DNA of 64,000 nucleotides from a virus: the IMG/VR virus record IMGVR_UViG_3300024308_000006, positions 931-64,930 of that record, one strand, 5' to 3'. Position numbers and translations under genes: made by a program. The notes under the pieces were generated by a model, which was given only the letters and a program-made list of their open reading frames with translations, was not told where the DNA came from and did not search any database. Positions within the stretch are counted from its first letter, which is position 1; each line of letters begins with the position of its first letter. Positions 320-63,825 of this stretch are shown one piece after another.

Positions 320-597
320 GCGTCGCAGCGCCCGCGCAAGGCTTCCATGCGCAACTGATGCTCACGCTCTTCGCGCCAGCGTCGCTCGTCTCGCTCAGCC
401 TGCTCGCGTTGGTCCCGGCGGCGCTGGAAGTACAGGTTGACGGCAAAGCCGGCCAAGGCAATCGCTACGCCGGCCCAGCCAATCCAGTTCACTGACATCA
501 GCCAGCCGGTGAAGCCGGCAGCGGCCCCCACCTGTGTGACCTTATTGGCGACTGCTGCGCCGACTACTTCATTTGCGATTCCAGCCCTGTCAGCCAT
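316..597 (-). CDS. holin (two TM helices plus charged tail)
   Basis: Start trimmed to ATG 597 (93 aa, MADRAGIANEVVGAAV...). Hydrophobic stretch AAAGFTGWLMSVNWIGWAGVAIALAGFAVNLYF, then an R/E-rich C-terminus. Lies directly upstream of the endolysin and is coupled to it. Confidence 0.65.
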   Translation of the reverse strand: MADRAGIANEVVGAAVANKVTQVGAAAGFTGWLMSVNWIGWAGVAIALAGFAVNLYFQRRRDQREQAERDERRWREEREHQLRMEALRGRCDA

Positions 598-668
598 GCG
601 GCCACCCTTTCCAAAGATGCTAGGGCGCCATGCCCTGGTCGTTGGCGTGGAGTCTTGGCCACCCTCCG

Positions 669-684
669 ATGGCGGCCAAGCTCT
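669..684 (-). promoter_or_regulatory. late intergenic palindromic motif, copy 1 (minus strand CCGACCCCTGTAGAGCT)
   Basis: Lies in the gap between the giant-gene stop (698) and the holin start (597). Same orientation and core (ACCCCTRTAGRGCT) as the copies at 17689, 36460 and 43755. Confidence 0.4.
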
Positions 685-697
685 ACAGGGGTCGGCC

Positions 698-9600: not shown

Positions 9601-12600
9601 CGGCCGGCGTGCGGGTATCCTCCTTCATGCTTATCGGACTGAGAATGCCGACCAGTTCGCCATTCAGCCGCACCTGCAAAGCGCTGTAGTCGCCGCGACT
9701 GTTCGGCTCGCCGGCGAAGAACTCCGCGCCCTTGAACTTGCTCAGGAAGTAGCGGACGTAATTCAGGTTCAGATAGACCGCAGGCTCGCCTTCCTTGCGG
9801 GAAAAAACGGCCTGCTTGCTGTCCTTGAGGTCGGGCCGATCATTGATCGCCAGCGGCTCCAGTTTCACGGCCGCGCGGCCGGCATTGGAGCCGGCCACCA
9901 CATTGGCCACCGCATTCTCGTTGATGGTCGTGCGCAGCCTGTCCATGCGCTCGGCCCAGCCTTTCAGGTGCGGCTCGCTGCCGGACAGGTCGATCAGGTG
10001 CCCACTGGCCGAATAGACCGTTTGCCCCTGGAAGGTGCCGGTCATCCAGTTAGTCACCTTGGCTGCGGTCGGCTTCACGCTCAGCTCGCGCAGGTCGGCG
10101 GCCTCGTAGCCGTCGCGCTTGGCCTGGGCCTCGGCTTCGGCGTCGGCCTTCTCCTTGGCCTCGGCATCCTTCACCAGCTGCTCGGCGGCGCGCTCGTTGG
10201 CGGCAGCGGTCTGGCGCATCTGCTGGATGGCATCGCGCGCTGTCTTGACCAGAGCCTCGTCAATGCCGAAGCGCTCCGCGTCGAAGGTGCGCGCGTCGTA
10301 CAAGGCCATATCCCGGTTGAAGCTCTCCAGCGCCTTCGCCGTGCGCTCGGCAAAGCGCTGGGCGCTGGCCAGGTCAGAAACGGCCGGCGGGTTGCTTCCT
10401 GGGTATGCGGTATCAACCTTGTACGGCTCTTTCACCAGGGCACGCCCCATCAGGCTCGCCAGGTCTTTGCCGGTGCCCTTCTCGACCTCTGCCATGAAGC
10501 CCATCACCGACTGCCAGCGGTTGTACACATCGGCCGGCTTCTCGCCGGTGGCGCCGGCGACTTTGGCGAAGGCGATCACCTCGGGCATTTCGCCGTGGCC
10601 TTCGCTGCGCAGTTGCTCAAAGCGGGCGGCCGGCGTGGCCGGCTCAGCATCGGCGCTTGCGCCAGTTGCGCCAGTTGCGCCAGTTGCGCCATTTGCGACA
10701 TTTGCGACAGCCCCCGCAGCGGCTGGCTCCAACTCGTCGCGCACCAGGGCGGCGGCATAGTCGTGCGCCGTCTTGCCCAGGTCGTAGTCGTTGACGTAGT
10801 AGACCGTTTTGCTGCCGGCCTGCTGCATGCGCTTTTCGTGCATGCGCTGCTCGGCCTCGGTCGCCCGGTTGAAGTCGCGGCGCGACATAGGCTTGATTCG
10901 CGGCTCTTGGCTGGTCGATACCGACAACTCGCCGGCGGCGTGCCACGCCTCGATATGCTCGCGCAGGGTTGCGGCCTTGCCGTCGATACGAATTTGCTTG
11001 TTCAGCGCCTTGATCGCCAGGGCGGCCACGTTGGGGGCCATATCCTTGACGTAGTTGTCCAGGCTCGGCGAGGTGGCGGCCGCTTTGGCGGCGGCTTCTG
11101 CTGCCTCTTGGTCGGCGCTGGCCTGGCCGCGGTTGCGCTGGCGGTATTCGACGTACCAGTCGAGGTCGGCGTCGGTGCGCTCTTCCGGCGGCGTGGCCTT
11201 GATTCGGGCCACACGCTCAGCGTCAGATTCCTGGGCCGGGGCTTCGGCCGCAGCTGGGGCGGCGTCCAGCTCAGCCAGCGCTTTGCGCACCTCGTCGGGG
11301 TTGTCCATACCCTCGATAGAGACGCCCTGGTCTTCCATGTTGTCGCGGGCGCCGTTGTACCAGCCGCGCAGGTACGGGCGAATCTTCTCCAGTGGCTGCC
11401 CCAGGTCATCGGCCATCAGGCGCGCGAACTCGGCGAAGCGGCGGGCGCTGGCTTCCAAGTGGAAGATGGCCAGCTCGGTGCCCATGGCCAGAATCTCGGG
11501 ATCGAGCCCGCTATTGAGCTGGGAACCGTTCAGCTTGGCGGCGAGCTTGGAGCGCAGCTCGGCGGCACGGTCGGCCGTGACCAGCTTGTTCTTGGCGCCG
11601 TACTCGTCGGTTTTTTTCTTCCGCTCGCCGACCGCCGCGCTCTCGGCGCCACCTGCCTGGCCCTGCCGCTTGCGCAGGGCTACAGCGCCCGGCTCGCGGC
11701 GCTGTGCTGCGCCAAGCAGGGCGTCGAAGGTGAAGATATTGCCGGTCAGTTGCTCAACCACGTCGGCCGGTACGTCGAAGCGCTTGCCCAGGTCGGTGAT
11801 TTCCGCATCTGACAGTCGGCGGCCTTGCTCAATGGCATGGTCGGCCATGGCTCGGGCTAGAGGCGCCAGCGAGCGGCCTTTGTAGCTGCCCTGAAACTCG
11901 TCGCCCAGCTTGCGCAGGTGCGCGGCGTATTCGTCGGCCTTGCGCTCGTCCACCTGCTCCGGAGTCTGCGCCGTCACTGGCGCTTGCGTCTTGACGCTCG
12001 CAGGTGCCGCCTCACTGCTGCTGTCGGTGGTCGAACTGGGGAACTCATGCGCCAACTTGACCAGCTCGCGGATCGGCGCGCCCAGGCTGATCACCTTCAC
12101 GTCCTCGCCCTTCTCGCGCGCAGCCAGCCACTGGTGATGGCCGTCCAGCACATGACCGTCCTGGGAAATCAGGATGGAGCGGTTGCCGCCCTCGAAGTCG
12201 CGGGCCTTGGCCACCTTGTCGCGGGAAAACTCGGCCTGTGTCGGCCTGAGCGCAGAGGCCGGGACGGTGCTCTCCTGATGCTGCACGCCTCGGGCATTGA
12301 GGAAGTTGACCATCGCCCCGCGATGCTCGGCCTTGATCTGCGGCATCTCGGCGCGCGGAATGCCCACGGTGCCAGAGCCAGGGTGGAAGGCATACCAGCC
12401 GCCGCCTGTGTCGCGGCTCTCATGCTCCTGGCGGGCTTTCATGCGTGCTTCCAGTGACTCGACATTGCTGTGCTGGTCGGCGTCATGGATGCCCATAGCC
12501 TCGGCCTGAGCCACCAGCTCGCGGCTCGGCCTTGCCAGCAGGCGCTTGTTCTCTTGCATGCGCTCTATGTGAGGGTCTTTCACAGCCGGCTCGGCAGCCA

Positions 12601-15070
12601 TTGCGGCAGCCAGCTTTTGCTGGGTCGCCTCACCAATGCGATCCCACGGTGCGCCGGGCAGGCTCTTGGCAAACACGGGCTTGACGCCCGACTTTTCAGC
12701 CAGCGCTTGGCGCTCGTCGCGGCTCATCGCCTCCCAGCGGGCGCCGTGGTCTACCCCTGCAGGGCTTCCTGCGGCTGTGGTTCCAGCTGCTTCGGCATCA
12801 GCGGTGGGTGCTTGGCCTCCCACTTGCGCTGATTGCGGGCTTGCTTCGACGGCTTGAGCGGCTTGCGGGACATTCTCGGTTCCTTGAGTGGCGCGCTTGG
12901 CCTGCTCCTTCTGCAGCTTGGCGGTGCGCTTGTGGTCGGGGCCGTAGCGGTCGATGGCCTGGGCAATCTCCGCGTCGGTCATCTGCGGGATTTGCTTGGC
13001 GGTGATGGCCTTGATGTCGGCCGGCGCCATGGCATCATCGACCATGCTGCGCGGGCGCTCGCCGGTCTTGCGGTAATTCAAGGTGCTGACCGGATCGGCG
13101 AAGTCAAGCCTGGCGTCAGCTTCAAGCGCAGCAGCCTGGTCGGGGTTCTCGTTCAGCCATTGACGGGCCGCGCCAAGCGATTTCTCGATGTCGTTCAGCT
13201 CTGCACGCAACTTTCCAGCGCGCCCTGCGCGCGCCATGTTCGGCGAAGCCTCGTTTTCAGCAATGGCCTGCTCGATGTCGGCACCATCAGGAATCTGATT
13301 GCGCTGCTTGAAGTCGCTCAGGCGCGAGGCAAGCCAGCCGGATACGGCGGGGTGATCCTGCGGCTTGGCCTGCACCTTCTCGGCGCGCACCTTGGCGATA
13401 CCCTGCTGCAACGGGGTCGGCTGGGAGACTTCCTGCTTGGCGGCCTCAACGGCGGCCGGGGCTTCGGCAGAAATGCTGATTTCCGGCGACTTGCCCATGT
13501 CGGCAATCAGTGAGTCGGTGGCGGCGCGGCTGGCGTCTGCCTCGGTGCCGCCCTGGCTCAATACCTGCCTGGCGGCCTGCTTCGCCTTGCCTGCCGGGGT
13601 ATCCAGCGCGTCAAGCTCTGCGCGGGCTTCGTCGTGGGCCTGAATCAGCTTGTTGTCCCAGCCGCTTATACGGGCCTGCTGCTCGATGTAGGAAATGAGG
13701 GTGGTCAGTTCCTCAGTGCGATCCGGTGCAGACTGGATGATTTCCCCGGTGTTCGTGTCGATCTGCTCGCCAGCCTTGGCGCCCTTCTTGGCTTCTTTCT
13801 GTGCCAGTTCGGCGGCTTGCTGCTCGGCAGCCTGTTGCGCCAGTTGCGCGGAAGCGCCGGTATCCACGGCGGTAGCAGCAGCATCGGACAGCGCGCCGGC
13901 AGCCGGATCAAGCCCCATTTGCTCGGATGGCCTGGCCGGGAAAGGTCGCTCAGTGCGGTACTGCGGCTGCACCTGGCCAGGCGCCATGCCGGCAGCCAGC
14001 GGCTCGGCAGTTGGCGCCTGCGGCTCCGCCACGGGATCAGCGGCCGGAGCGGGATCAGCGGCAGGCTCATCGCCCGCAAGCTCGGTTGGATCTACCACCG
14101 GGGCCGATTGTGAGTCATGGGCAAATGCACCCTCGACCGCGCCGAAGCCACCACCTGCCGCAGCGCCAGCCAAGCCTTCCAGCGCAGCCTGACCGGCAAC
14201 GCCTTGCCAGGTCGGAGTATCAAAGCCTTCGTTCTGCAGGGCGATGTTCGACGCCAGGCGTTCTTGGCCGCCTTGCGCGGCCTCCAGCGGCGCCTCCTTC
14301 GCAGCGCCCAGCAGCGTGGATCGGATCACTCCCTGCGCAGCGGCCTCGCCGGCTTCATTACCCAGCATCCGGCCAACCACTCCTTCAACGCCGGTAGTAC
14401 CTGCTGCAACGCCAAGCCCTGCGCCGAGCGCAATCTGTCCGGCGTTATCGCCGCCGTAAGCCTGCGCCTCTACGGCTCGGGCCTCTGCCTCCTCTGGCGT
14501 GGCGCCGGCATCAAGGTGCTGCTGCTTAACTGCGTCGTAGATGGCGCCTTTAACCGTGCCCGCGCCCTGCGCGGCACCCATTGCACCAGCTACCGGAGCG
14601 CGCAGTTTTCCGCGCGTCAGCGCAGTAGCCGCGATGGTCGGCAATGACGTGCCCAGCGCCTCGACAGTGGTGTCGATGGGCGCCTCGGCAAATGCGCCGA
14701 CGTTCGCCTTCACTTCCTCCCAGGTGCTACCGGAAGCCTCGGCTTTCTTGATCTTCTCAGCGCGCGCGGCGCGCTCTTCGCGGCGGGCCTCCGTCTCGAA
14801 ACCGCGAACATAGTCGGCGGCATCGCCGAGCTTCTGCGAAACCGCATTGCCAGCCCCGGCGGCATTGGCCAGGAGCTGGATGCCGGTAACGGCACCGGAG
14901 CCAGCAGCGACTGCCGTATCGCGCAGGGCGCCGCCAAACCCCTTAGCGGTGTCCGGTGCGTCCTCCATGAAGGAGTCAACTGCGCTTGTTTTCGCGGGAG
15001 TGTCAGAAACCGGCTCGTCCAGAAACTTGTCGATGTCGCTCACTGAGTACGATTCCTTATTGGTAGCCAA
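698..15070 (-). CDS. giant multi-domain 'polyvalent' virion protein (4,790 aa)
   Basis: Single uninterrupted ORF. Its ATG overlaps the upstream virion gene stop by 14 nt. Contains ParB-like, N6-MTase, HExxH, ART-like and PLxRFG motifs (sub-features below), plus a hydrophobic C-terminal region. Confidence 0.85.
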   Translation of the reverse strand: MATNKESYSVSDIDKFLDEPVSDTPAKTSAVDSFMEDAPDTAKGFGGALRDTAVAAGSGAVTGIQLLANAAGAGNAVSQKLGDAADYVRGFETEARREERAARAEKIKKAEASGSTWEEVKANVGAFAEAPIDTTVEALGTSLPTIAATALTRGKLRAPVAGAMGAAQGAGTVKGAIYDAVKQQHLDAGATPEEAEARAVEAQAYGGDNAGQIALGAGLGVAAGTTGVEGVVGRMLGNEAGEAAAQGVIRSTLLGAAKEAPLEAAQGGQERLASNIALQNEGFDTPTWQGVAGQAALEGLAGAAAGGGFGAVEGAFAHDSQSAPVVDPTELAGDEPAADPAPAADPVAEPQAPTAEPLAAGMAPGQVQPQYRTERPFPARPSEQMGLDPAAGALSDAAATAVDTGASAQLAQQAAEQQAAELAQKEAKKGAKAGEQIDTNTGEIIQSAPDRTEELTTLISYIEQQARISGWDNKLIQAHDEARAELDALDTPAGKAKQAARQVLSQGGTEADASRAATDSLIADMGKSPEISISAEAPAAVEAAKQEVSQPTPLQQGIAKVRAEKVQAKPQDHPAVSGWLASRLSDFKQRNQIPDGADIEQAIAENEASPNMARAGRAGKLRAELNDIEKSLGAARQWLNENPDQAAALEADARLDFADPVSTLNYRKTGERPRSMVDDAMAPADIKAITAKQIPQMTDAEIAQAIDRYGPDHKRTAKLQKEQAKRATQGTENVPQAAQAVEASPQSAQVGGQAPTADAEAAGTTAAGSPAGVDHGARWEAMSRDERQALAEKSGVKPVFAKSLPGAPWDRIGEATQQKLAAAMAAEPAVKDPHIERMQENKRLLARPSRELVAQAEAMGIHDADQHSNVESLEARMKARQEHESRDTGGGWYAFHPGSGTVGIPRAEMPQIKAEHRGAMVNFLNARGVQHQESTVPASALRPTQAEFSRDKVAKARDFEGGNRSILISQDGHVLDGHHQWLAAREKGEDVKVISLGAPIRELVKLAHEFPSSTTDSSSEAAPASVKTQAPVTAQTPEQVDERKADEYAAHLRKLGDEFQGSYKGRSLAPLARAMADHAIEQGRRLSDAEITDLGKRFDVPADVVEQLTGNIFTFDALLGAAQRREPGAVALRKRQGQAGGAESAAVGERKKKTDEYGAKNKLVTADRAAELRSKLAAKLNGSQLNSGLDPEILAMGTELAIFHLEASARRFAEFARLMADDLGQPLEKIRPYLRGWYNGARDNMEDQGVSIEGMDNPDEVRKALAELDAAPAAAEAPAQESDAERVARIKATPPEERTDADLDWYVEYRQRNRGQASADQEAAEAAAKAAATSPSLDNYVKDMAPNVAALAIKALNKQIRIDGKAATLREHIEAWHAAGELSVSTSQEPRIKPMSRRDFNRATEAEQRMHEKRMQQAGSKTVYYVNDYDLGKTAHDYAAALVRDELEPAAAGAVANVANGATGATGATGASADAEPATPAARFEQLRSEGHGEMPEVIAFAKVAGATGEKPADVYNRWQSVMGFMAEVEKGTGKDLASLMGRALVKEPYKVDTAYPGSNPPAVSDLASAQRFAERTAKALESFNRDMALYDARTFDAERFGIDEALVKTARDAIQQMRQTAAANERAAEQLVKDAEAKEKADAEAEAQAKRDGYEAADLRELSVKPTAAKVTNWMTGTFQGQTVYSASGHLIDLSGSEPHLKGWAERMDRLRTTINENAVANVVAGSNAGRAAVKLEPLAINDRPDLKDSKQAVFSRKEGEPAVYLNLNYVRYFLSKFKGAEFFAGEPNSRGDYSALQVRLNGELVGILSPISMKEDTRTPAEIRGYMQASGKAEVKPKSVVERAKEVKAESGAAAARFQVVAINERTGAKEYLSFGEPMTQDQAIKFKKRFSEHPARRIQLEAVTDTPAAKPESKRSVMEKAAEAKAQAVADYFAPGNVVPSYGGNFDRVVSYQAPDKDGHWSVTVRAVVKQDGEWIDKPGERERNHSTLPEARELKAGPAGKVEPVEADAAPQMWHTELPQEGIALTKEQREGKADAYRAISGMLATDAVNAITPVQLTNQTPLYLYVLPEASGRNGIARFVPDDQTVPAPWKKADDKPLSYALTREQMIYRTTEALRNQPVLGSVTRATGAGAERPGSRRDPRVVSMLNPYLEGDVVSIDGQDWTVRQDMPGWYLTNTGNWRGQHPTIHGIKDMADLIREVEQAATAQPADAAQDDAAADFPLKEAADSYSGISHSGSARAKADAEEYARYIDDARESGLAVAHTDAQKAAVAQAVADLRVEYLANYRRLMSVRAGTYSGHVAGRSGLNGKQANQRNNAYDRAIETFTAWQSANTHKARKAALDARTEAEKAADQAAADQAREDKAQKERDADLTLMRKILSWKKGGEPVAITKTAVLDGVNKGRDGYPTSIKLKPIDGSTLLDDKFDLAALFRDRKRGESVPESKRRVRELVNAVRAEAATEAAQEAQDQEQAPTKADSKMPLLQAHEDAMEQARDGKIEAEAFRAAFAQVEGNREVILAELNSMNKEKLLRAGGVHFYHRYKSEKKDRVVEALYRSMLDEYALGKSYGPTSYMMTAAGMESHRQAKAQALRDLVAGTDADALSQYAAEVAELRKERESRKEATQKALTDPQTLAEFRSAITYNAERHAETRREAYLRLTPEQRRRYDALEAESTREARDQAKAKQRTKIASAGNTTAGEVIATKHTKHGHDLFVVKLEERVSRDDYDTLNSSAKRMGGSYSSYRGNGAIPGFQFRTREAAEAFRKLVAGDTTAAQEVAQARRDAFEDDRSQSAVERLRTMAAALNERAEEELGRDRKVNTARRARMASAAEGAANANKALAGTMSNIADAIESGKAKFLDLVRQKVQVEFLNAELRNAKDAQIRAKYPSYADQERHRGQPIDDETVDYSAFPTYGGMRSDLAGIARQMIEVDGLKNLGQRLLKVADDVSDAYVEWAKNNLLSVSRFGRGDQLAEFASRDDAERAIRRANLSDRAIVLPLKRGVNRIVLSPSEAMKQGVWQGDDKRIDLSGDFGREIVEAVGRRAGSKIKLPWQLETVHAKRKRLEGMGIYTGSEYRAALREFAELQQAMATPDKIKQMERAMIGRRSDGLDFFPTSEAVVDAMLEAAEIAEGMGVLEPSAGMGHIADAIREKTGVEPDVVELSGERRELLQAKGYHLAGDDFMAMQPRTFYTFGDIFQAPDGTKGIMHGGAAWSGRASLHAINEDGSEGKMLGWYDRDELTGIEQRGSWSGYDRIVMNPPFSKGRDIQHVQHAYSLLKPGGRLVAIMGEGAFFQSNSAAEGFRAWLDDLGATSERLPENSFMDAALPVNTAVNARMVVIDKPATDTSGITADSARRAAVRARVAANNDNRADEDFLQGMLKALYEKTGDGVLEHKLSTWLDSRFQRLEAVDQLYAEYDKAFAGKDEVLFSRQSPVETAGLSQSSVVTGKAPANPLTLDEAIAAAERFLADYNGHIELSYRIRKTQDELYGPGSIAKIGVVKGAYHPGRGLFTLTADHLSSVADTVETLRHELLGHYGLDTFAPADKQALLDKILASKDDPTLKVVWSEISRLYSDKSDSVQAEEVFARLAEGERSGKEKLADLLYSLLTRLLRKVFGYKKGIITRRELLREIEVISKGIRNGSRPRQTFDSEAKQRRGAQTDTEAFRRWFGKSKVVGADGQPLNLYHGTAADFTVFDQGRAGSATGHATSALGIFMSSDRRAAQNYAEKASDGMPGYGRVMDLYASIQNPYLMSVEESQEVESPLEARRLRTRLEQQGYDGIRLKGTPVWIAFNNYQVKSATDNNGDFDEFDPDIRFSRSAVRDFASRATQELNRTFSAPGGLSWWHKTVGTMYNLAQRSPHFKPVFEAAQGFIDDVSHYASDAAELAPKLLPKLETWRDIAKSPVQAKDNKAISAPIFEGTLMWARDEDGKPVRVDSLAERAMGLTAEQKADILVKQGKLSASMLAAWRGQGAEQFAKMVDSRYETQSLKPGIVWTDAELRSMWHLTDGQIELYREFRGATNRSLDTMARADMLRFGGEDVKGLREQVMDAADVKEAGLILRDHLAQLADAQPERAMSLLDTAQGINERVERITQLQAEGYAPLSRFGKYTVDMVGADGERQYFSLFETKREANLMAEQMKAAFPGSTISQGTLSEEAFKLFAGITPETLELFGNAMGLDSSGDSERDKVFQDYLKLTKTNRSAMKRLIHRQGIAGYSEDVGRVLASFVYSNARQTAAGLNMGDLSEAVNAIPQGQGELKDAAVRLADYIKNPQEEAQALRGLLFAQYLGGSVASAFVNMTQPVAVTFPWLSQYGGAKQAAGELSKAAKQMATKGYRYEADLAKALHLAEEDGTVSPQEVHQLMAQASGTGGLRAGDGTRAGDARALASNSLARLSLAWGKMFGAAEEVNRRMTFIAAYRIAKAQGNADPAAFARLAVRETQFIYSKASKMRWGRGAVGSTLMTFKTYSVAYLELMGRLWNQGEAGSQERKDGRKAALLMIATLMLLGGAGGLPFAEDAEDLIDGMAQLAGYNFSTQKAKEQFLIDVFGDDIARFIDKGVTGLPGAPLDVSGRLGMGNLIPGTGLLQQRDDHSRDVLEIAGPAGDLVKRMISGAHKAASGDLAGGLLEVSPTAVRNLAKGADMAATDMYRDDKGYKVLDTNTLEAALKAVGFQPQSVASIQEANWLGQRSKAFYNMRAQEIRALWAQGVFEKDPAKVQDARAAVADWNAKNPDQPMRISVPDVMRRVREMGKSKDQRIADTAPRAMRQQLREDFARVRATIEE
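2714..2755 (-). other. PLxRFG motif inside the giant protein
   Basis: Translation reads EGYAPLSRFGKYTV. This motif is characteristic of large polyvalent phage and conjugative-element proteins. Confidence 0.6.
3600..4060 (-). other. ADP-ribosyltransferase-like (ART-PolyVal-type) module of the giant protein
   Basis: FRRWFGKSKVVGADGQPLNLYHGTAADFTVFD...ALGIFMSSDRRAAQNYAEK...GIRLKG...NYQVKSA. Family assignment is from memory of the YHGT/F.S pattern, not a search. Confidence 0.5.
4200..4645 (-). other. zincin-like HExxH metallopeptidase module of the giant protein
   Basis: ETLRHELLGHYGLDTF (HExxH). Coincides with a local GC drop (about 52% versus about 65% in the flanks). Confidence 0.55.
5030..5735 (-). 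other. SAM-dependent N6-adenine DNA methyltransferase module of the giant protein
   Basis: Motif I VLEPSAGMGHIAD and motif IV IVMNPPF, followed by LLKPGGRLVAIMGEG. Confidence 0.75.
10657..10710. repeat. 9-bp tandem repeat x6 (TTGCGCCAG-like) inside the giant gene
   Basis: ttgcgccag x3, then ttgcgccat, ttgcgacat, ttgcgacag. Encodes ...VANVANGATGATGATGAS... in a linker region. Confidence 0.9.
12038..12365 (-). other. ParB/Srx-like nuclease-fold module of the giant protein
   Basis: PRAEMPQIKAEHRGAMVNFLNARGV...LRPTQAEFSRDKV...ILISQDGHVLDGHHQWLAAREKG... Confidence 0.7.
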
Positions 15071-46572: not shown

Positions 46573-46877
46573 GGCCGCTCCCCTTCTACTGGAGTCATCC
46601 AGTCGGACTTATGCTCGAGCAGGGTAAGCTCCCAACCTGGCGCTATCTCGCACATGCCGAATTCGCCGTACTGGCCGGAAAAGTAATGCGCCTCGTACAG
46701 ATACAAGCCTTCGCCATGCTCGAATTCTTGTTCCTCCCTGAGGCTCTTTTCGATCTCTTCGAGAGCAGCCAGCGATATGCGACCGTTGATTGCGCAGACG
46801 AATGGTTCTTCGCCGCCTTCTAAACGCAGCACTTCGATAACCACACCGCTTTTGTTAAATAGCTCGCCGGACATCAC
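46569..46877 (-). CDS. hypothetical protein (102 aa, lower GC)
   Basis: ORF-track ORF with ATGA overlaps on both sides. Confidence 0.55.
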   Translation of the reverse strand: MMSGELFNKSGVVIEVLRLEGGEEPFVCAINGRISLAALEEIEKSLREEQEFEHGEGLYLYEAHYFSGQYGEFGMCEIAPGWELTLLEHKSDWMTPVEGERP

Positions 46878-48972: not shown

Positions 48973-49203
48973 TCAAGCAGCAGCGAGTTCAGGCCAAATG
49001 CGGCTCCAGTCGTCAGGCCGCAACTCCTGACGAGTGACAGCGCCGCCTGTTTCGCGCTCGATTCCAGCCGCAACCTCGGCAGATGCTGTTTTGTTGCCGT
49101 AGGCGATCTGGCGCAAGTAGCCACGGGTCGTTCCCGTCTTGGAAACTTGTTCATCCGAGGCGTTTTTTAGCCACCCCAGGAGGGTTGTGTGCTTGGTTTT
49201 CAT
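48973..49203 (-). CDS. cro: Cro/YdaS-like HTH regulator
   Basis: MKTKHTTLLGWLK...TTRGYLRQIAYGNKTASAEVAAGIERETGGAVTRQELRPDDW. Divergent from the repressor gene across the operator region. Confidence 0.65.
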   Translation of the reverse strand: MKTKHTTLLGWLKNASDEQVSKTGTTRGYLRQIAYGNKTASAEVAAGIERETGGAVTRQELRPDDWSRIWPELAAA

Positions 49204-49232
49204 GGAGGCACTCCTATGCAATGCACGGAATG

Positions 49233-49296
49233 ATTACCCATCGGTAATGCTTTGGCAAGCAATCCATTACCCGCAGAACATTTACCTACAAGTAAC
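49233..49296. promoter_or_regulatory. operator cluster and divergent promoters between cro and the repressor
   Basis: Perfect palindrome ATTACC-CATC-GGTAAT (49233-48), plus degenerate copies ATTACCCGCAGAACAT (49266-81) and TTTACCTACAAGTAAC (49281-96). On the minus strand, TTGCCA-N16/17-TAATCA overlaps the first site. Confidence 0.65.
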
Positions 49297-49315
49297 AAGT
49301 CGGGAAGATGTGCGA

Positions 49316-50089
49316 ATGGATATCTACGAAGCCCGCCGAACGAACCTACGCCGCCTGATGGACGCCACCTATGGCATTAACGCCAGGGGCGCCCAAACCA
49401 GAATGGCTGAGCGCCTGAACAAATCTCAGAACTATCTGTCGCGCTGCCTTGCCGATCCGCAAGCCAGCGGCTTCAAGAAGATAGGCGAGCAATTTGCGCG
49501 GGAGATAGAAGCCGAGTTCGGGCTTAGGCGGCATTCGCTGGACTTTGACTCGTTCATCGAACAGCAGGACCGATTGCCAACCAACCAATTTACGACTGGC
49601 GAGGGCTCGTGCAGAAATGCTGAAGCCTTTGATGTAGGGATCGACACAGGCGCACAAATAACCTCGGTTCCCCTCCCCTTCGATCAAGGCAGGGTGCCGG
49701 TAGTAGGAAAGGCAATGCTCGGCATGGATGGATACTTTGAGGCGCTGGATTATCCAGTTGGTCATGGCGATGGATACCTCGCGGTTCCGAGTCGCGACCC
49801 TAACGCTTATGCGCTTCGCGTGGTGGGGAACTCTATGACGCCAAGGATCAAGAACGGTGAGTTCGTCTTGATTGAGCCTGGTCAGACGTTCGCTAACGGC
49901 GACGACGTGCTGGTCAGGACGCGCGACGGGCGATCCATGATCAAGGAGTTCGTCTACCTGCGTGACGGCCAATATCGCTTTGACAGCTACGGAAATGGGT
50001 ACGAGCCAATCTACCTGGATGAAGGCCAGGTAGAGCAAATTCACTTCGTCGGCGGCATCTTTAAGTCGTACCGGTTCTCACCTGAGTAA
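49316..50089 (+). CDS. cI: cI/LexA-type repressor (HTH plus S24 peptidase)
   Basis: Start at MDIYEARRTNLRRLMD. C-terminal S24 domain ...AYALRVVGNSMTPRIKNGEFVLIEP...DVLVRTRDGRSMIKEF. Confidence 0.85.
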   Translation: MDIYEARRTNLRRLMDATYGINARGAQTRMAERLNKSQNYLSRCLADPQASGFKKIGEQFAREIEAEFGLRRHSLDFDSFIEQQDRLPTNQFTTGEGSCRNAEAFDVGIDTGAQITSVPLPFDQGRVPVVGKAMLGMDGYFEALDYPVGHGDGYLAVPSRDPNAYALRVVGNSMTPRIKNGEFVLIEPGQTFANGDDVLVRTRDGRSMIKEFVYLRDGQYRFDSYGNGYEPIYLDEGQVEQIHFVGGIFKSYRFSPE

Positions 50090-50102: not shown

Positions 50103-50519
50103 ATGCTCAAGATGCTCAGAAATATCTTTGCTGTCGCTCTGTTCCCGGCCGTCGCTATGGCTGACCCAGGCCTTGAGTTATTGCGTGAGGTGCTCGCCAC
50201 CGGCAGAGTTTGCTCGTTCGCAAAGGGCGTAACAGACCGCCAAGAGTGCTATGTGAAAGCATCGCCTGCACGATGCGAGCGCGAGGCTCGCGCAGGGATA
50301 ATGGGCAACCCCGTGCTTTTTGCGCAGTTTCGCGCCTGCATAATTTCCTGCGGAAATGCCGGGGTATGGTCATCATCAGTAGGAGAATGCAGCAGGAGCC
50401 TTGTGATTGAGGACGCGCCGCAACGAGCGGAAAGACTCACCGCTCTGCGTTGCGATAATGAATCATGGGAATCGGGCTGGGTCAGCGCTGATTGCCTAGA
50501 GGCCGCCGAAGGCCGATAA
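50103..50519 (+). CDS. secreted Cys-rich protein co-transcribed with the repressor (moron)
   Basis: Signal peptide ...RNIFAVALFPAVAMA and 8 Cys. Begins 14 nt after the cI stop and is followed by a strong terminator. An alternative start at ATG 50112 has better SD spacing. Confidence 0.65.
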   Translation: MLKMLRNIFAVALFPAVAMADPGLELLREVLATGRVCSFAKGVTDRQECYVKASPARCEREARAGIMGNPVLFAQFRACIISCGNAGVWSSSVGECSRSLVIEDAPQRAERLTALRCDNESWESGWVSADCLEAAEGR

Positions 50520-50534
50520 CACCCTAAGCCAAAC

Positions 50535-50562
50535 AAACCCGCCACCGAGCGGGTTTTTTTTG
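50535..50562 (+). terminator. intrinsic terminator of the repressor-moron operon
   Basis: AAACCCGC-CACCGA-GCGGGTTT followed by a T8 run. Confidence 0.85.
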
Positions 50563-50578
50563 TGCCCCCAGAAAAAAC

Positions 50579-50622
50579 ATTACCCACAGGTATTGACTGA
50601 AATCATTACCTGCCGGTAATGT
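50579..50622 (+). promoter_or_regulatory. repressor-controlled early promoter (PL-equivalent) with two operators
   Basis: ATTACC-CACA-GGTATT (50579-94) and ATTACC-TGCC-GGTAAT (50605-20) have the same half-sites as the cro/cI operators. They overlap TTGACT (50593-98)-N18-TAATGT (50617-22). Confidence 0.7.
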
Positions 50623-50628
50623 GCGCAC

Positions 50629-51243
50629 AACACAAGGCAGCGATGCCCCGGCCAAGGCCGAAACGCTCTTTAACAACCTCGAACCTTCCGCAGTCCCGAC
50701 AGCCTCGGCTGAGCGACGGAAGCAAAACACGACTGCTATTGCCGGCGAACCGGCCCACGCATGGCTCTGGTCACCATGCCGACTCGACCTGTTGACCCCT
50801 GGAATCAGCAGCCCACCGAGGCGCACCCACCCGCTCCCTGCCGGATGCCTGAGACGAAGGCGCACCACCAGCACAGCGGCCAAGTGAAGCAATGCCCGGC
50901 CTGATGGCGAGTAATCAGGCACCGACAGCCAGACGAGACAGCCGCGCAAGAGGCCAGTAGCTGAGCGCGGCGAGGAAATACGACACACGCCGGGGCTTAG
51001 GCTCCGGCTGTATCGGTGGGTGATCTGAACAGCCAGCAACCTATAAGGCGCTGGAAAACAGCCAAAACGCGAGGGTTTGCGGCCTCGGGAAGACAGCAAG
51101 TCCGAATGCCCAGGCGGTGAGTAATCACGGGGATCGGCTAGTGGGGCGCAGCTCAGTGGCGCCAAGCGGGGTTTGCCTTCCGCACAGATCACCCAACCCA
51201 TACAGCCACCAGCACCACAACGAACAGCCAGGAGGGAATCGCC
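50629..51243 (+). ncRNA. about 615-nt untranslated early leader / candidate long ncRNA
   Basis: No plausible plus-strand ORF: only short ORFs of 50 aa or less with rare codons and no SD. C/A-rich and T-poor. Contains an internal imperfect repeat. Bounded by the promoter/boxA and the first gene with a good SD. Confidence 0.35.
50664..50676 (+). promoter_or_regulatory. boxA antitermination element
   Basis: CGCTCTTTAACAA is 12/13 identical to rrn boxA TGCTCTTTAACAA and shares CGCTCTT with lambda nut boxA. It lies about 35 nt downstream of the predicted TSS and is followed by the stem-loop CTTCCG...CGGAAG (50685-50722). Confidence 0.7.
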
Positions 51244-51450
51244 ATGGCCCAATTCAACATCGACGCACACCTGAGTGACGGCAAGAGCCTGCAGTGGCTG
51301 GCCCTGCCGGACATCGGCGAACACCCGCTGGATGTTGAGGCGCAGGTGCGCCAGGCCGCCATGCAGAAGTTTGGCCAGGCGGCGTACTTCAACCACTGGA
51401 CGCGCACGGTGGCCAGCAACGGCTACATCACGGTGCGCATGCACACCTAA
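51244..51450 (+). CDS. hypothetical early protein (68 aa)
   Basis: ORF-track ORF with strong SD AGGAGG 8 nt upstream. Confidence 0.6.
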   Translation: MAQFNIDAHLSDGKSLQWLALPDIGEHPLDVEAQVRQAAMQKFGQAAYFNHWTRTVASNGYITVRMHT

Positions 51451-51833
51451 CACCCCGCCCTCTCGCGGGACGCCGGTAGCCCGGCAAACGAGAGGCGGTC
51501 GAGGCACGCTGGCCGATAGAGCGATGCGCGGAGTTCCTGTCCTACCAGGTGGCCGCGCTAGCAAGCGACCAGGCTGGCGCGCTAACGCCGCATGCCGACC
51601 TGCACGGCGCCGAATGCAGGCCGTCCACCCGCGAGGGCGGATCGGAGAGTGCAGATAGACGCCGGCAACGCGGGGCAGGGTCGCAACCCCCTGCAGTCGG
51701 CGAGACAGGCTCCAACGTGGAGTTCTGCATTCCCCGATGCGCCCCCCGCATCAGCTCCTTCTCAGCATTTATCCCGCACACGCCGGGGCTTTTTCGCCCG
51801 CAGCACGCGGGGCATCACTCAAGAGGAAAGGGC

Positions 51834-52190
51834 ATGGCAGACAAACTCTACCCTTGCAGTCGCTGTGACGGAGAAGGCCGGGTATGGCTTTTCGCTCACG
51901 TTTTTGCTGGCGTCTGTTTCCAGTGTGGCGGTTCCGGCAAGCAAAAAACCAAACCGCGCCCCAAGGCTGTCAAGTGGGCCGTCTTCGGTCACTGCCGCAA
52001 CACCGGGAAGGTCGGACGCCTTTATAACGTCAGCGCGCCGACTCAGGCCGCCGCGATCAACAAGGCCCGCGAGATTTACGAGCGCTCCAGCACCGCCTGG
52101 CGAGACGAGTGGAGTATGGCAAACGCCTTCGCTCAGACCTGGGCCGAGCTTCAGGAAGCCGGGACGCTGGAAACCGCCGGAATCGAGTAG
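51834..52190 (+). CDS. protein with a DnaJ-type double CxxCxGxG zinc finger (118 aa)
   Basis: Start trimmed to MADKLYPCSRCDGEGRVWLFAHVFAGVCFQCGGSGKQK (SD GAGGAAAGGG). Confidence 0.6.
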   Translation: MADKLYPCSRCDGEGRVWLFAHVFAGVCFQCGGSGKQKTKPRPKAVKWAVFGHCRNTGKVGRLYNVSAPTQAAAINKAREIYERSSTAWRDEWSMANAFAQTWAELQEAGTLETAGIE

Positions 52191-54499: not shown

Positions 54500-55420
54500 A
54501 TGAGCCAAGCAAATCTCGCCATCGTCGAAAAGGACGTTTACGGCTGCCGCGATGCCTTCGCGCAAGTCCTGGCCGACCCGGCGATCAACTTCGAGCGCGA
54601 GGCCGTGTTTGCCATGCAGGTTCTGTCGCGCAACGACTACACCCTCAAGGTCGCGGCCAACAACCGGCAGTCTGTGGCCGACGCCATTACCAACGTCGCC
54701 TCTATCGGCATCAGCCTGAACCCTGCGCGCAAGCAGGCGTATCTGGTGCCGCGCGACGGGAAAATCTGCCTCGACATTAGCTACATGGGGCTGATGGACT
54801 TGGCGATGGCCACCGGCTCGATCCTGTGGGCCAAGGCTGATCTGGTGTATGAGGCCGACCAGTTCGAGCTCAACGGCTTTGACCGCCCGCCGACGCACGG
54901 CTTCAAGCCGTTCGCCAAGGATCGCGGCGCCATCGTCGGCGTGTATGTGGTGGTCAAGACCGCCGACGGCGATTACCTCACCGAGGCGATGAGTCTCGAC
55001 GACGTGTACGCCATCCGCGACCGTTCAAGCGCCTGGAAGGCTTGGATCAAGGACAATAAGTCCTGCCCTTGGGTGACTGACGAGGGCGAGATGATCAAGA
55101 AAACCTGCGTGAAGCGCGCCTACAAATACTGGCCGAAAACGGATCGGCTGGAGCGCGCGATTCACTACCTCAACACCGATGGCGGCCAGGGTATCGACCT
55201 GCACAACCAGCAGAGCGCACCGAACCCCGCTGTCGGCGACATTTGGGTCGCCAAGGCCCAGGCCGCCGTCACGGCGGAAGAGCTCACCGCTGTCTGGACG
55301 CAAGGGGTTGCCGCCCTGCGCGCCGCCAAGGACATGCCCGGTTATGAACGCCTCAAGGCTGCCGTGGCGGCACAGGGCGAAATTCTCAAGCGTGAACCAC
55401 TCGAAGGAGAGTGCCAATGA
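54500..55420 (+). CDS. recT: RecT-family single-strand annealing protein
   Basis: ...NVASIGISLNPARKQAYLVPRDGKICLDISYMGLMDLA...GVYVVVKTADGDYLTEAMSLDDV...KKTCVKRAYKYWPK. Confidence 0.85.
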   Translation: MSQANLAIVEKDVYGCRDAFAQVLADPAINFEREAVFAMQVLSRNDYTLKVAANNRQSVADAITNVASIGISLNPARKQAYLVPRDGKICLDISYMGLMDLAMATGSILWAKADLVYEADQFELNGFDRPPTHGFKPFAKDRGAIVGVYVVVKTADGDYLTEAMSLDDVYAIRDRSSAWKAWIKDNKSCPWVTDEGEMIKKTCVKRAYKYWPKTDRLERAIHYLNTDGGQGIDLHNQQSAPNPAVGDIWVAKAQAAVTAEELTAVWTQGVAALRAAKDMPGYERLKAAVAAQGEILKREPLEGECQ

Positions 55421-56187
55421 AACTGATCGAATGCGAACAGGGCAGCGCTGAATGGCACGCTGCCCGCGCCGGCTGCATCACTGCCTCGATGTTCGAGACG
55501 GCGCGCAGCCAGGTTGGCGGCCTGACCAGCCAGCAGAAAATCTACGTCGATGCGATCCGCCTCGGCGGGCACAGCGAGAAGAAGGCGATGGAGCTCGCCG
55601 GCTACAAGGCTGCGCCCAAGTCCGAAACCGTCGCCCGCGCCCTGGACGGCGAGAAGGTCGGCGAGCCCAGCGAGGCGGCCAAGAATTACGCCTTCAACCT
55701 GGCAGTTGAGCGCATCAGCGGCCAGCCGCTCGATGGTGGGTTTGAAACCTGGCAGATGAAGCGCGGGCATGAGCTGGAGCCCGAAGCCCGGATGGAGCAC
55801 GAAATTCAGACCGGCCTGGTGGTCATGCGCGCCGGCTTCGTCACCACCGACGACGGCTGTTTCGGTGCCAGCGCCGACGGCTTGATCGGCGAGGATGGCG
55901 GCAGCGAATACAAGTGCTTCCTGGCCCCGGAAAAGCTACGCGCCTTCCACATCGACAACGACGCCTCCGGCATCTTCGATCAGGTGCAGGGCTGCATGTG
56001 GATCACCGGCCGCAAGTTTTGGCACATCGGGCTGTACTGTCCCGCCCTGGCGGCAGTCGGCCGCCAGCTCTGGTGGCAGGAGTTCAAGCGCGACGAGGCG
56101 TTCATCGAGCAGCTGGAGCAAGACCTGTGGGGCTTCAAGCTGCTGGTCGACGAGTACGAAACCGCACTCAGGAAGAAGGCCGCATGA
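55417..56187 (+). CDS. YqaJ/lambda-Exo-type recombination exonuclease
   Basis: Start at ATG 55417 (SD AAGGAG, ATGA overlap with RecT). MKLIECEQGSAEWHAARAGCITASMF...GASADGLIG...GSEYKC. Confidence 0.8.
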   Translation: MKLIECEQGSAEWHAARAGCITASMFETARSQVGGLTSQQKIYVDAIRLGGHSEKKAMELAGYKAAPKSETVARALDGEKVGEPSEAAKNYAFNLAVERISGQPLDGGFETWQMKRGHELEPEARMEHEIQTGLVVMRAGFVTTDDGCFGASADGLIGEDGGSEYKCFLAPEKLRAFHIDNDASGIFDQVQGCMWITGRKFWHIGLYCPALAAVGRQLWWQEFKRDEAFIEQLEQDLWGFKLLVDEYETALRKKAA

Positions 56188-56513: not shown

Positions 56514-56574
56514 ACGGCCTACCCCAACTCACCCAGGGCGCTTCAAGCGCCCTTTTCTTTGCCCGGACTTTCCC

Positions 56575-62447: not shown

Positions 62448-62681
62448 ATGGCAAAAGTAGTCACTCAAATCACGGCGAAGGTTCCGCGACTGATGGAAGC
62501 CGGCGAATACCGAGCGCTGCGCTTTGCAGGCGGCAAGCCCAGCCTGCAGCAACTGAAAAAATGGATCGACGAGGGCGTGATTGTCGGCGAGGTGAAAGGC
62601 GAAATGTACTTCGTAGACCTGAACGCCGAACTAACTGGCTCGACCGATCCCCTCCTGCACAAGATGATGGCGGTAAGCTGA
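62448..62681 (+). CDS. xis: excisionase
   Basis: 77 aa immediately upstream of int. ...LQQLKKWIDEGVIVGEVKGEMYFVDL... is lambda-Xis-like. Confidence 0.65.
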   Translation: MAKVVTQITAKVPRLMEAGEYRALRFAGGKPSLQQLKKWIDEGVIVGEVKGEMYFVDLNAELTGSTDPLLHKMMAVS

Positions 62682-62682
62682 C

Positions 62683-63825
62683 ATGAACCCACCGCGCCCG
62701 CGCACCGGCAGGAATCGCACCCTGCCCGACAACCTGTACCCCAACGGGAAGTATTGGCAGTACCGCAATCCGATCACCGGGAAGAAGGTCAGCATCAACA
62801 AGCCAATGGCCGAGGCAATCAAGCTGGCGAAGCTGGCCAATGCCAAGCTGGCCCCGCTGATGACCGATGACGGCGCGCTGCTGCAACTGCTGACCGGCGA
62901 GCAGGCGCCGACCGTCAAGAGCCTGCTTGAACGCTTCGAGTCGGAATGGCTGCCTGAGCGCAAGCTGGCCGACTCCACGCTCAAGGAAACCCGCATCAAG
63001 CTGGAGCGCTACCGGGCAGACCTGGGCGACAGGATGATCGGGCAGCTCGACGTGCTGGCAATGGCCGAGTATCTGGATCAGTTCAGCAACAACGCCTACA
63101 CCAAGCATCGCGGCCTATGGATACAGATTTACGCCTTCGCCGTGGCCAAGGGATTGGCTGAGCGCAACTGCGCCGAGCTGACCCTGCAGAAGAAAGAGCA
63201 GGAGAAGGTGCGCCAGCGCCACACTGTCGAGGGCGTGCAAAAGATTCTCGGCGCCGAAACGACGCCAGCCTGGCTCAAGCGCGCCATTCGTCTGGCGCTG
63301 CTGAGTCTGCAGCGCCGCGAGGATCTAGTCACCTGGGAGCGCGCAGCCGTGGACATGAGCCGTAACGTGATCCGCGTCAGCCCCGGCAAGACCGAGAACT
63401 ACGGCACGCCCATTCATCTGGAGATTGAAATGGGCGCCGACCTACGCGCCGTGGTGCAGGAGTGCCTGAAAGAGCCAATCGCCAGCCCCTACCTGATCTG
63501 CTACCGGCCGAGGGCGCGCAAGCGCGAGCAGATCGAGGCCAAGCTGCACTGGTCGGCGGTGACGGATGACTACCTGACCAAGGAGTTTCGCAAGGCCCGC
63601 GACCTGGCCAGGGCATACGACCACATCGAGAACCCCAAGGCCCGGCCCACCATGCACGAACTGCGCGCGCTGGGCTCATGGCTGTACGAGCAGCAAGGCT
63701 TCTCGACGGAGTATGTGCAGGTACTGATGGGGCACGCGACCCCGGACATGACCGCCTATTATCAGGACGGCCACGAACAGAAAGAGGTGATTTACCAGCA
63801 CGTCCAAGCGGGACTGAAACTCTAG
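62683..63825 (+). CDS. int: tyrosine integrase (lambda-Int type with an arm-binding N-terminus)
   Basis: LPDNLYPNGKYWQYRNPITGKKV (arm-binding domain)... HELRALGSWLY...LMGHATPDMTAYYQDGH (HxxR ... H ... Y catalytic region). Confidence 0.9.
   Translation: MNPPRPRTGRNRTLPDNLYPNGKYWQYRNPITGKKVSINKPMAEAIKLAKLANAKLAPLMTDDGALLQLLTGEQAPTVKSLLERFESEWLPERKLADSTLKETRIKLERYRADLGDRMIGQLDVLAMAEYLDQFSNNAYTKHRGLWIQIYAFAVAKGLAERNCAELTLQKKEQEKVRQRHTVEGVQKILGAETTPAWLKRAIRLALLSLQRREDLVTWERAAVDMSRNVIRVSPGKTENYGTPIHLEIEMGADLRAVVQECLKEPIASPYLICYRPRARKREQIEAKLHWSAVTDDYLTKEFRKARDLARAYDHIENPKARPTMHELRALGSWLYEQQGFSTEYVQVLMGHATPDMTAYYQDGHEQKEVIYQHVQAGLKL

Follow-up and report, generated by a model that had tools for sequence, protein, structure and literature searches.

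How do the lambda-like phages of Pseudomonas, which include many clinical P. aeruginosa prophages, transcribe early operons that contain terminators when they encode no recognisable N? The question of delayed-early expression in such phages has been raised in the literature, where terminators were reported in the early operons of the Pseudomonas lambdoid phage YA3 and an N homologue was not found (PMC7326022). It also arises in the sequence analysed here, a stretch of 64,000 nucleotides (nt) from IMG/VR record IMGVR_UViG_3300024308_000006 (positions 931 to 64,930; hereafter the window), which represents a GC-rich, lambda-like Pseudomonas prophage with structural genes similar to those of Hollowayvirus Atpa001. 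A preliminary description, made from the letters of the window, had placed a repressor-controlled promoter, a boxA and a long untranslated early RNA at 50579-51243, ahead of the recombination and integration genes. We found all of the sequence features that it listed, at coordinates that were exact or within 1 nt, and the leader proved to be a boxA-headed RNA of about 330 nt that stands where lambda has nutL and N, making it a concrete candidate for the N function.

Conservation and covariation of the leader RNA

BLASTN against phage genomes revealed similarity starting at boxA in Atpa001, PAShipCat1, Shamal, YMC11/02/R656 and vB_Pae_U7, and pattern scans recovered the element from IMG/VR contigs and from prophages of six Pseudomonadaceae species (Pseudomonas sp. 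L-22-4S-12, P. citronellolis, P. panipatensis, Aquipseudomonas alcaligenes, Metapseudomonas resinovorans and P. xionganensis), for a family of more than 20 distinct sequence variants. The loci compared carry L-numbers (for example, L001 is Atpa001, L047 is JBD44 and L048 is phi297). Wherever flanks were available the order was constant: repressor gene, terminator, promoter with its own operators, a start region of 35-60 nt ending in a small hairpin, boxA, the RNA and the first early-left gene. The conserved core spans about 330 nt, from 50664 to approximately 51008 in the window, and a covariance model identified exactly one copy per phage or locus, in sense orientation and never on the PR side. 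Searching the whole window against Rfam 15 gave no match at gathering thresholds; between 50400 and 52000 there were only sub-threshold chance matches at E ≤ 10, and those in or next to the leader (50471-50615) were due to the upstream terminator hairpin. Open-access papers on boxA, nut sites or antitermination in Pseudomonas phages and on structured RNAs in prophages yielded no prior description of the element, and the family is apparently undescribed.

Covariation analysis, which the preliminary description had proposed as a check, was positive for the 5', central and 3' domains. For the 5' domain, a covariance model was made of boxA and the hairpins HP1, HP2 and HP3, and 18 variants were re-aligned with it, which left 97.2% of cells paired and showed double-sided changes at 12 of the 21 pairs (47 cells). 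None of 500 shuffles matched the pairing, the count of doubly changed cells or the covariation score, a single shuffle reached the number of doubly changed pairs, and controls with partners slid by 1-3 columns were 27-47% paired. For the central and 3' domains (9 variants, 43 pairs), 92.9% of cells were paired, compared with 30-39% in slid controls, a percentage that is somewhat flattered because the structure was derived by RNAalifold from the same alignment. The double-sided changes, seen at 15 of the 43 pairs, are unaffected by this. No shuffle of 500 matched four of the five measures, and 150 attained the observed number of further pair types. Covariation extends to at least 13 helices in total. 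The leader is a compact, conserved multi-helix RNA, and its covariation and conservation therefore mark it as a functional RNA rather than a spacer.

The stem-loop reported earlier at 50685-50722 is exact and equals the outer stem of the conserved, covarying hairpin HP1. This outer stem (stem a) occurs as CUUCC/GGAAG, CCUCC/GGAGG, CCACC/GGUGG and CCGCC/GGCGG, while the apical stem c differs in length among variants and ends in a loop of the UUCG or GNRA type; in these stems one pair is seen as UA, AU, CG or GC and another as CG, GC or UA. The internal loops are conserved (GCAGUCCCGA and AGCGAC in the window; (G)CAGUCCCGA and AGCGA(C/U) across variants). The first six bases of the conserved internal strand, GCAGUC, have a conserved complement, GACUGC, 8-13 nt past the hairpin, and the helix between them (stem b) was also chosen by RNAalifold from 18 sequences. 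Nineteen variants have G-C as its outer pair and four have U-A, with no mismatched combinations, which is modest support because the four belong to one clade and represent one evolutionary event. A complete swap of stem b is possible in L053 (GCGACU...AGUCGC), where the alignment was made by eye only. Together, stems a and b probably make a pseudoknot; the alternative is that each helix excludes the other.

Further 3', HP2 was 96.5% paired with two pairs changed on both sides, HP3 was 98% paired with four, and the nested helices behind them were 94-95% paired, again with four. No block is conserved more widely than the central domain, which phi297 and L036 also have. The hairpin that ends the core is built at the same place in the alignment from stems as different as AUGCGCC/GGCGCAU, AAGCACC/GGUGCUU and AAGCCGC/GCGGCUU, and in most relatives it abuts the Shine-Dalgarno sequence (SD) of the first gene.

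A consensus boxA behind a repressor-controlled promoter

The boxA of the window, found exactly as first described, is the sole exact copy of CGCTCTTTAACAA in the 64 kb, and many related phages likewise have a conserved boxA heading the early-left transcript. The sequence GCTCTTTAACA fits the gamma-proteobacterial consensus GYTCTTTAANA (PMC5725501), as expected of an rRNA-type boxA. All variants retain the GCTCTTT core but differ in its flanks, and boxA variants also head other types of leader (phi297, L052 and L053). On reading the variants, without a formal count, we found a small hairpin immediately 5' of boxA in all of them, the same order as boxB-boxA in rrn operons; its stems differ from variant to variant (for example, GGCC-GAAA-GGCC and GGC-CACCGA-GCC).

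Upstream, the order of repressor, terminator and promoter is also present in Atpa001, PAShipCat1 and Shamal. Two operators with the half-sites of the cro/cI operators do overlap the promoter of the window, one of them exact and the other with a single mismatch (Table 1). The same motif, ATTACC-N4-GGTAAT, occurs three times between cro and cI (49233, exact; 49266; 49281), and with up to three mismatches it has 15 matches against 5.25 expected, a number reached by none of 100 shuffles. The promoter had been called good, and its hexamers and 18-nt spacer are in place, but the adjective overstates a -10 hexamer with only three of six consensus positions, which is why a consensus scan did not list the promoter. 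Strong promoters occupy the equivalent place in homologous loci, including TTGACA-18-AATAAT in L036 (11/12) and TTGACG-17-AATAAT in L013 (10/12). Transcription in the window probably starts at about 50629-50630.

The untranslated leader of the window phage is about 610 nt long, approximately 570 nt of it without a credible open reading frame (ORF). Base composition at 50631-51243 is A.25, C.33, G.30 and T.12, a T-poverty just slightly beyond that of the neighbouring gene (T.145). The region had also been called C/A-rich and rut-like, but G about equals C over most of its length, it is mostly base-paired, and rut-like fits only short patches, such as 51209-51229.

Table 1 Positions of features in the repressor operon, the leader RNA and the early-left operon of the window
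Feature	Position	Strand	Details
CI-type repressor gene	49139-50089		phrog_4/6201
Small secreted-type ORF	50103-50519		In cI-repressor operon
Intrinsic terminator closing cI-repressor operon	50535-50556 plus T-run (to 50563)	+	8-9 bp GC stem
Operator OL-a, ATTACCCACAGGTATT	50579-50594	+	1 mismatch to ATTACC-N4-GGTAAT; overlaps -35
-35 hexamer TTGACT of PL-like promoter	50593-50598	+	18-nt spacer to -10
Operator OL-b, ATTACCTGCCGGTAAT	50605-50620	+	Exact ATTACC-N4-GGTAAT; overlaps spacer and -10
-10 hexamer TAATGT	50617-50622	+	3/6 match to TATAAT
Two small 5' hairpins, GGCA-GCGA-UGCC and GGC-CAAG-GCC	50636-50660	+	Read from sequences
boxA, CGCTCTTTAACAA	50664-50676	+	About 35 nt after probable start
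HP1/pseudoknot domain	50685-50736	+	Stems a, b and c
HP1 stem a	50685-50689 with 50718-50722	+	Covaries
Pseudoknot stem b	GCAGUC 50690-50695 with GACUGC 50731-50736	+	
HP1 apical stem c	50700-50703 with 50708-50711	+	Tetraloop cap; covaries
HP2, GCCGG-CGAA-CCGGC	50741-50754	+	5-bp stem, NGAR-type tetraloop
HP3	50759-50779	+	6-bp stem, conserved 9-nt loop CUCUGGUCA
Nested helices CUCG/CGAG and CUGUUGA/UCAGCAG	50783-50820	+	
Central domain, CGCUCCCUGCCGGAUGCCUGAGACGAAGGCGC..CCAGCACAGCGG	50831-50878	+	Three stacked helices
Hairpin with conserved loop GGCGAGUA (consensus GGCNNGUA)	50899-50920	+	UA/GC and AU/GC swaps
3' domain, GCCGCGC/GCGCGGC around GGC-CAGUA-GCU hairpin	50941-50971	+	5 pairs changed on both sides
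3' terminal hairpin of conserved core	50989-51008	+	
Lineage-specific inserted domain	51006-51208	+	Long stem, about 51006-51027 with 51186-51208
Single-stranded C/A-rich tract and SD	51209-51243	+	SD AGGAGG at 51230-51235
First operon gene	51244-51450	+	68 amino acids, phrog_7788, not Arg-rich
Second conserved non-coding element	about 51451-51797/51805	+	Between 68-amino-acid gene and next gene
Terminator-like hairpin and CTTTTTCG (T-run)	51772-51788	+	About 25 nt after long hairpin of second element
Strong intrinsic terminator	56535-56562	+	8-bp stem, 6 GC pairs, T-run
xis	62448-62681	+	
int	62683-63825	+	

Leaders assembled from separable modules

The conserved core of the window is followed by an inserted domain that is missing from the closest relatives in the alignment (L023 and L035). 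It has a self-closing fold (z = -1.98), with an almost perfect inverted repeat of about 22 bp (GGCTGTATCGGTGGGTGATCTG / CAGATCACCCAACCCATACAGCC) as its closing stem, and includes a diverged copy of the GAGUAA hairpin region at approximately 51095-51135. Searches for this domain elsewhere identified no homologue. We considered a repeated mobile element and rejected it, no further copy being present in the window or in IMG/VR.

Other leaders vary more widely. In the P. aeruginosa type represented by L002, a different, roughly 250-nt insertion interrupts the middle of the RNA. The phi297 leader (L048 2150-2620) has a boxA variant, CGCTCTTTTGACAA, together with HP3 and the central and 3' modules, and is without HP1 and HP2; that of JBD44 (L047 2120-2610) has the L002-type middle and 3' modules without boxA. 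The 3' module (CCGCGGGUUGUAGAAGCCCAGUAGGCGAACGCGGG and its hairpin) has at least partial matches in about 70 P. aeruginosa phage records. In L052, an IMG/VR prophage (541-1960, minus strand), boxA lies behind a PL-like promoter and is followed by approximately 1.1 kb of another non-coding stretch and two opposite-strand genes, and then by a truncated canonical RNA, so that boxA is parted from the 3' half of HP1 and the remaining canonical RNA; this leader is recombinant or interrupted. The leaders of L002, phi297, JBD44 and L052 therefore depict mosaics of RNA modules, of which boxA is the commonest head.

Comparison with known leaders and antiterminators

In map position the leader resembles lambda nutL, with a repressor gene, a terminator, an operator-controlled PL, a boxA approximately 35-60 nt into the transcript, a structured RNA and later terminators, and its boxA is of the CGCUCUU(U)A type that a nut site carries. 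It nevertheless lacks three of the four features that define a lambda nut site (boxB, N and paired copies). In place of a boxB of about 15 nt with a GNRA-like pentaloop, the leader has a 38-nt interrupted hairpin within a pseudoknot of about 50 nt (50685-50736) and a further 250 nt or so of helices; HP2, 65 nt beyond boxA, does have a stem of 5 bp, but its loop is a tetraloop. An N-like protein was not found, the element is single-copy with no nutR, and its boxA has the full rRNA-type consensus, whereas that of lambda is weakened.

The rRNA leader (boxB-boxA-boxC, with NusA/B/E/G, SuhB and S4) likewise has a consensus boxA after a small hairpin and before a long untranslated structured RNA, and host factors are apparently sufficient for both. 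The phage leader differs in belonging to a repressor-controlled, protein-coding operon, in having no boxC-like GU-rich element and in facing obstacles that include hairpin terminators.

The put element of phage HK022 has about 70 nt, two stem-loops and no boxA, and acts alone on the beta-prime subunit of RNA polymerase, with no need of a phage protein (PMC9378689). If the leader acts in cis, as this analogy would have it, both are cis-acting folded RNAs just past PL, and HK022 too is without a working N-type antiterminator. In contrast to the leader, which has about 330 nt, is headed by boxA and is single-copy, put needs no Nus factors and has two copies, putL and putR. Size, boxA and helix number, which define put, all differ, and no likeness to put was noticed, with no dedicated comparison made.

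Long structured leaders that make long-operon transcription processive are also known as EAR, in Bacillus eps operons, and as conAn2 RNA, in conjugative plasmids (PMC8191782). These belong to other phyla, have no sequence relation to the phage leader and no boxA, and conAn needs a partner protein. The prophage-borne GOLLD and ROOL RNAs are similar in size and helix count, but the leader does not match their Rfam models, and they have no boxA and are not located behind an early promoter. Overall, the leader appears most like lambda nutL/N in map position and most like the rRNA leader in signal, and it would best be classed with boxA-based antitermination leaders, as an apparently undescribed RNA family.

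Proposed antitermination without N

The single copy directly behind PL, the variable genes after it and the terminator usually found downstream point to a cis antitermination leader resembling nut or put. Twelve of 15 loci have a sense-strand hairpin like an intrinsic terminator 0.75-3.4 kb after the RNA, beyond which co-directional genes continue, and in Atpa001 and L052 the operon contains opposite-strand genes that PL transcription would cross untranslated. In the window, the terminator-like hairpin at 51772-51788, about 1.1 kb downstream, is the first candidate target of read-through, and the strong terminator at 56535-56553 sits in the middle of the operon, after an exonuclease-like gene (55411-56187) and before xis and int.

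Neither a partner protein nor a second site emerged from our searches. As in the preliminary description, no N-like Arg-rich protein was found: the first gene is not basic, and early-left proteins had no match to an N family or other relevant family in PHROGs or Pfam, a search that might overlook a partner of very small size or rapid evolution. Lineages differ in the gene that comes first after the RNA, which encodes the 68-amino-acid phrog_7788 protein in the window, a CsrA-like protein in L015 and in L021, a small membrane protein in L023 and in L036, and other proteins elsewhere; the phrog_7788 gene is no constant partner. BLASTP of all ORFs of the window against those of Shamal and of Atpa001 (bases 20000-66366 only) identified just NinG-like and small-terminase-like proteins as common to these three genomes, all of which carry HP1. 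No second, nutR-like copy was detected in the window or the other loci with boxA and HP1 patterns or the covariance model, and in the window cro and a cII-like gene abut, leaving no room for nutR. A boxA-like site at 46852 has two mismatches and lies inside a gene, and was rejected.

With middling confidence, we read the RNA as a cis-acting antitermination leader that loads Nus factors and works without N; Nus binding, cis action and antitermination are what we infer. That boxA loads a host Nus complex is known from rRNA operons, lambda nut and suhB (PMC5725501). Once the two operators are free of the CI-type repressor, RNA polymerase would start near 50630 and, about 35 nt in, make the small hairpin and the consensus boxA, followed by the pseudoknotted multi-helix RNA, which would act in cis on the polymerase that made it. 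As in rRNA operons and lambda nut, boxA would recruit host NusB/NusE and, through them, NusA, NusG and SuhB. The HP1 pseudoknot and later domains may then replace boxB plus N of lambda, or the put RNA of HK022, in stabilising a termination-resistant elongation complex. Such a complex could cross the untranslated leader, both downstream terminators and, in relatives, the opposite-strand gene cassettes, and would thereby reach the recombination, xis and int genes.

More tentatively, the family might constitute an undescribed class of large phage RNA in which an rRNA-type boxA and a pseudoknotted multi-domain fold make polymerase resistant to terminators without any phage protein. A leader that needs no phage protein would lengthen the short list of RNA-based antiterminators and provide a case of a virus recruiting rRNA-type Nus complexes. 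Next to put and EAR, such a class would represent a third type of processive antiterminator made of RNA only, and would supply the missing N function of Pseudomonas lambdoid phages.

Several observations weigh against antitermination as the role of the leader. Complexes formed on an rRNA-type boxA are known chiefly for blocking Rho and are not known to defeat intrinsic hairpin terminators efficiently, so read-through of hairpins would need an additional activity of the RNA, an entirely speculative step of the proposal. The first downstream terminator of the window is itself weak (5 pairs). The PR operon has no copy of its own, in contrast to the pairs nutL/nutR and putL/putR, and about 330 nt and 13 helices are far more than known nut or put elements need. 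Since JBD44 has the 3' modules without boxA and phi297 is without HP1 and HP2, the modules are separable, and the 3' two-thirds may serve a role unrelated to boxA. Folding energy of the whole region does not differ from that of shuffles (z = 0.09), which is usual for GC-rich sequence and uninformative.

Other roles for the RNA

Somewhat unlikely, in our judgement, is that the folded RNA is the product itself, a stable and possibly processed trans-acting RNA, such as a ribonucleoprotein component, an anti-defence RNA or a host-factor decoy, in which case boxA would just secure its completion without Rho termination and its correct folding. With its size, at least 13 covarying helices, invariant loops and a pseudoknot, the RNA does resemble large phage-associated RNAs more than nut or put, yet it has no Rfam relative, and its place behind PL is invariant, single-copy and in sense orientation. 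The terminator about 1 kb downstream could bound a short immediate-early transcript, but the 3' end of the RNA has no terminator or processing signal, and in most relatives the core meets the next SD. Its modules recombine independently of boxA (JBD44 and phi297), and lineage-specific domains have been inserted with the core left undisturbed, both as a trans-acting RNA would allow; known protein-binding repeats (GGA and CA motifs, by eye only) are not enriched. The decoy, sponge or scaffold suggested at the outset found no specific support. A sponge for CsrA/RsmA was considered and rejected, GGA motifs not being enriched by eye and the window having no CsrA-like gene. The fold may also have a wholly new job, as a ribonucleoprotein or anti-defence RNA, with boxA borrowed for its own synthesis. 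Any such role would still make this a new family of large structured RNAs, with enough variants for structure determination.

Less probable again is a cis-regulatory leader, in which the RNA would sense a metabolite, protein or temperature, or serve as a platform for RNase processing, and so set how well the early-left mRNA is translated or how stable it is, as is the case for the lambda N leader and its RNase III site; boxA would then have a supporting, anti-Rho part only. The complexity of the RNA is within the riboswitch range, although Rfam gave no match to a known riboswitch and the 3' end shows no evident expression platform, for instance a choice between terminator and antiterminator. 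The conserved blocks CUCCC and UGGGA have the potential to pair mutually or with sequences resembling an SD, and several relatives encode a CsrA-like regulator right or soon after the RNA. The following gene, however, differs in almost every lineage, leaving no common product to regulate. In most relatives the conserved 3' hairpin immediately precedes the first SD, but in the window the two are separated by about 235 nt (51009-51243), including the inserted domain of approximately 200 nt.

Very improbably, the region encodes one or more small proteins missed by annotation, as ORFs of 47-88 amino acids in the window and short 'hypothetical protein' coding sequences annotated in GenBank over the homologous stretch of PAShipCat1 (PP067092), Atpa001 (PV641718) and Shamal (OR683409) might suggest: all three sense frames are interrupted by stops in the window and nearly all homologues, the ORFs have no SD, their frames, ATGs and lengths differ among close relatives, indels are not multiples of three, and substitutions compensate base pairs rather than codons. 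The earlier statement that 50630-51243 holds no credible ORF therefore stands, and whichever role the RNA has, those annotations are very probably artefacts given the covariation and the unconserved frames. The long antisense ORF (50524-51564, 346 codons) is explained by the T-poverty of the sense strand.

The early-left operon beyond the leader

The first gene begins with an ATG at 51244 behind its SD, as reported. A second conserved non-coding element follows it, characterised by a long, imperfect, covarying hairpin (GC.AGGGCGGAUCGGAGAGUG ... CACUCCCCGAUGCG..CCC.GC). Homologues are present in L013, L015 and L021, in L036 the equivalent place is taken by an element with a strong terminator, and in several lineages the first downstream terminator ends this second element. 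Pairing between the leader and the second element was considered and rejected, as duplex energies were not consistently better than those of shuffles. In L021, a tRNA-like sequence (GCATAGCTCAGTTGGCAGAGCGCCTGACTTGTAATCAGG...) lies directly after the second element, at approximately 2370-2440.

CsrA/RsmA-like regulators are encoded in the early-left operons of several phages, directly after the leader in L015 and L021 and further on in Atpa001 (L001 6506-6877, Atpa001_39) and phi297 (L048 3054-3425, phi297_00021). Just past the first terminator-like hairpin, the window encodes a protein of 118 amino acids (51834-52190) with a zinc ribbon (CxxC...CxxC) at its N-terminus and a basic linker. It was rejected as a partner of the leader: its one match was weak and Q-like (phrog_127, E = 4e-4), Pfam gave none, and it lies after the first terminator and is not among the early-left ORFs listed for relatives. 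At the edge of the prophage, an ORF of 4790 codons (698-15070, minus strand) has 77% identity over 968 amino acids to the 'putative DNA methylase' of Atpa001.

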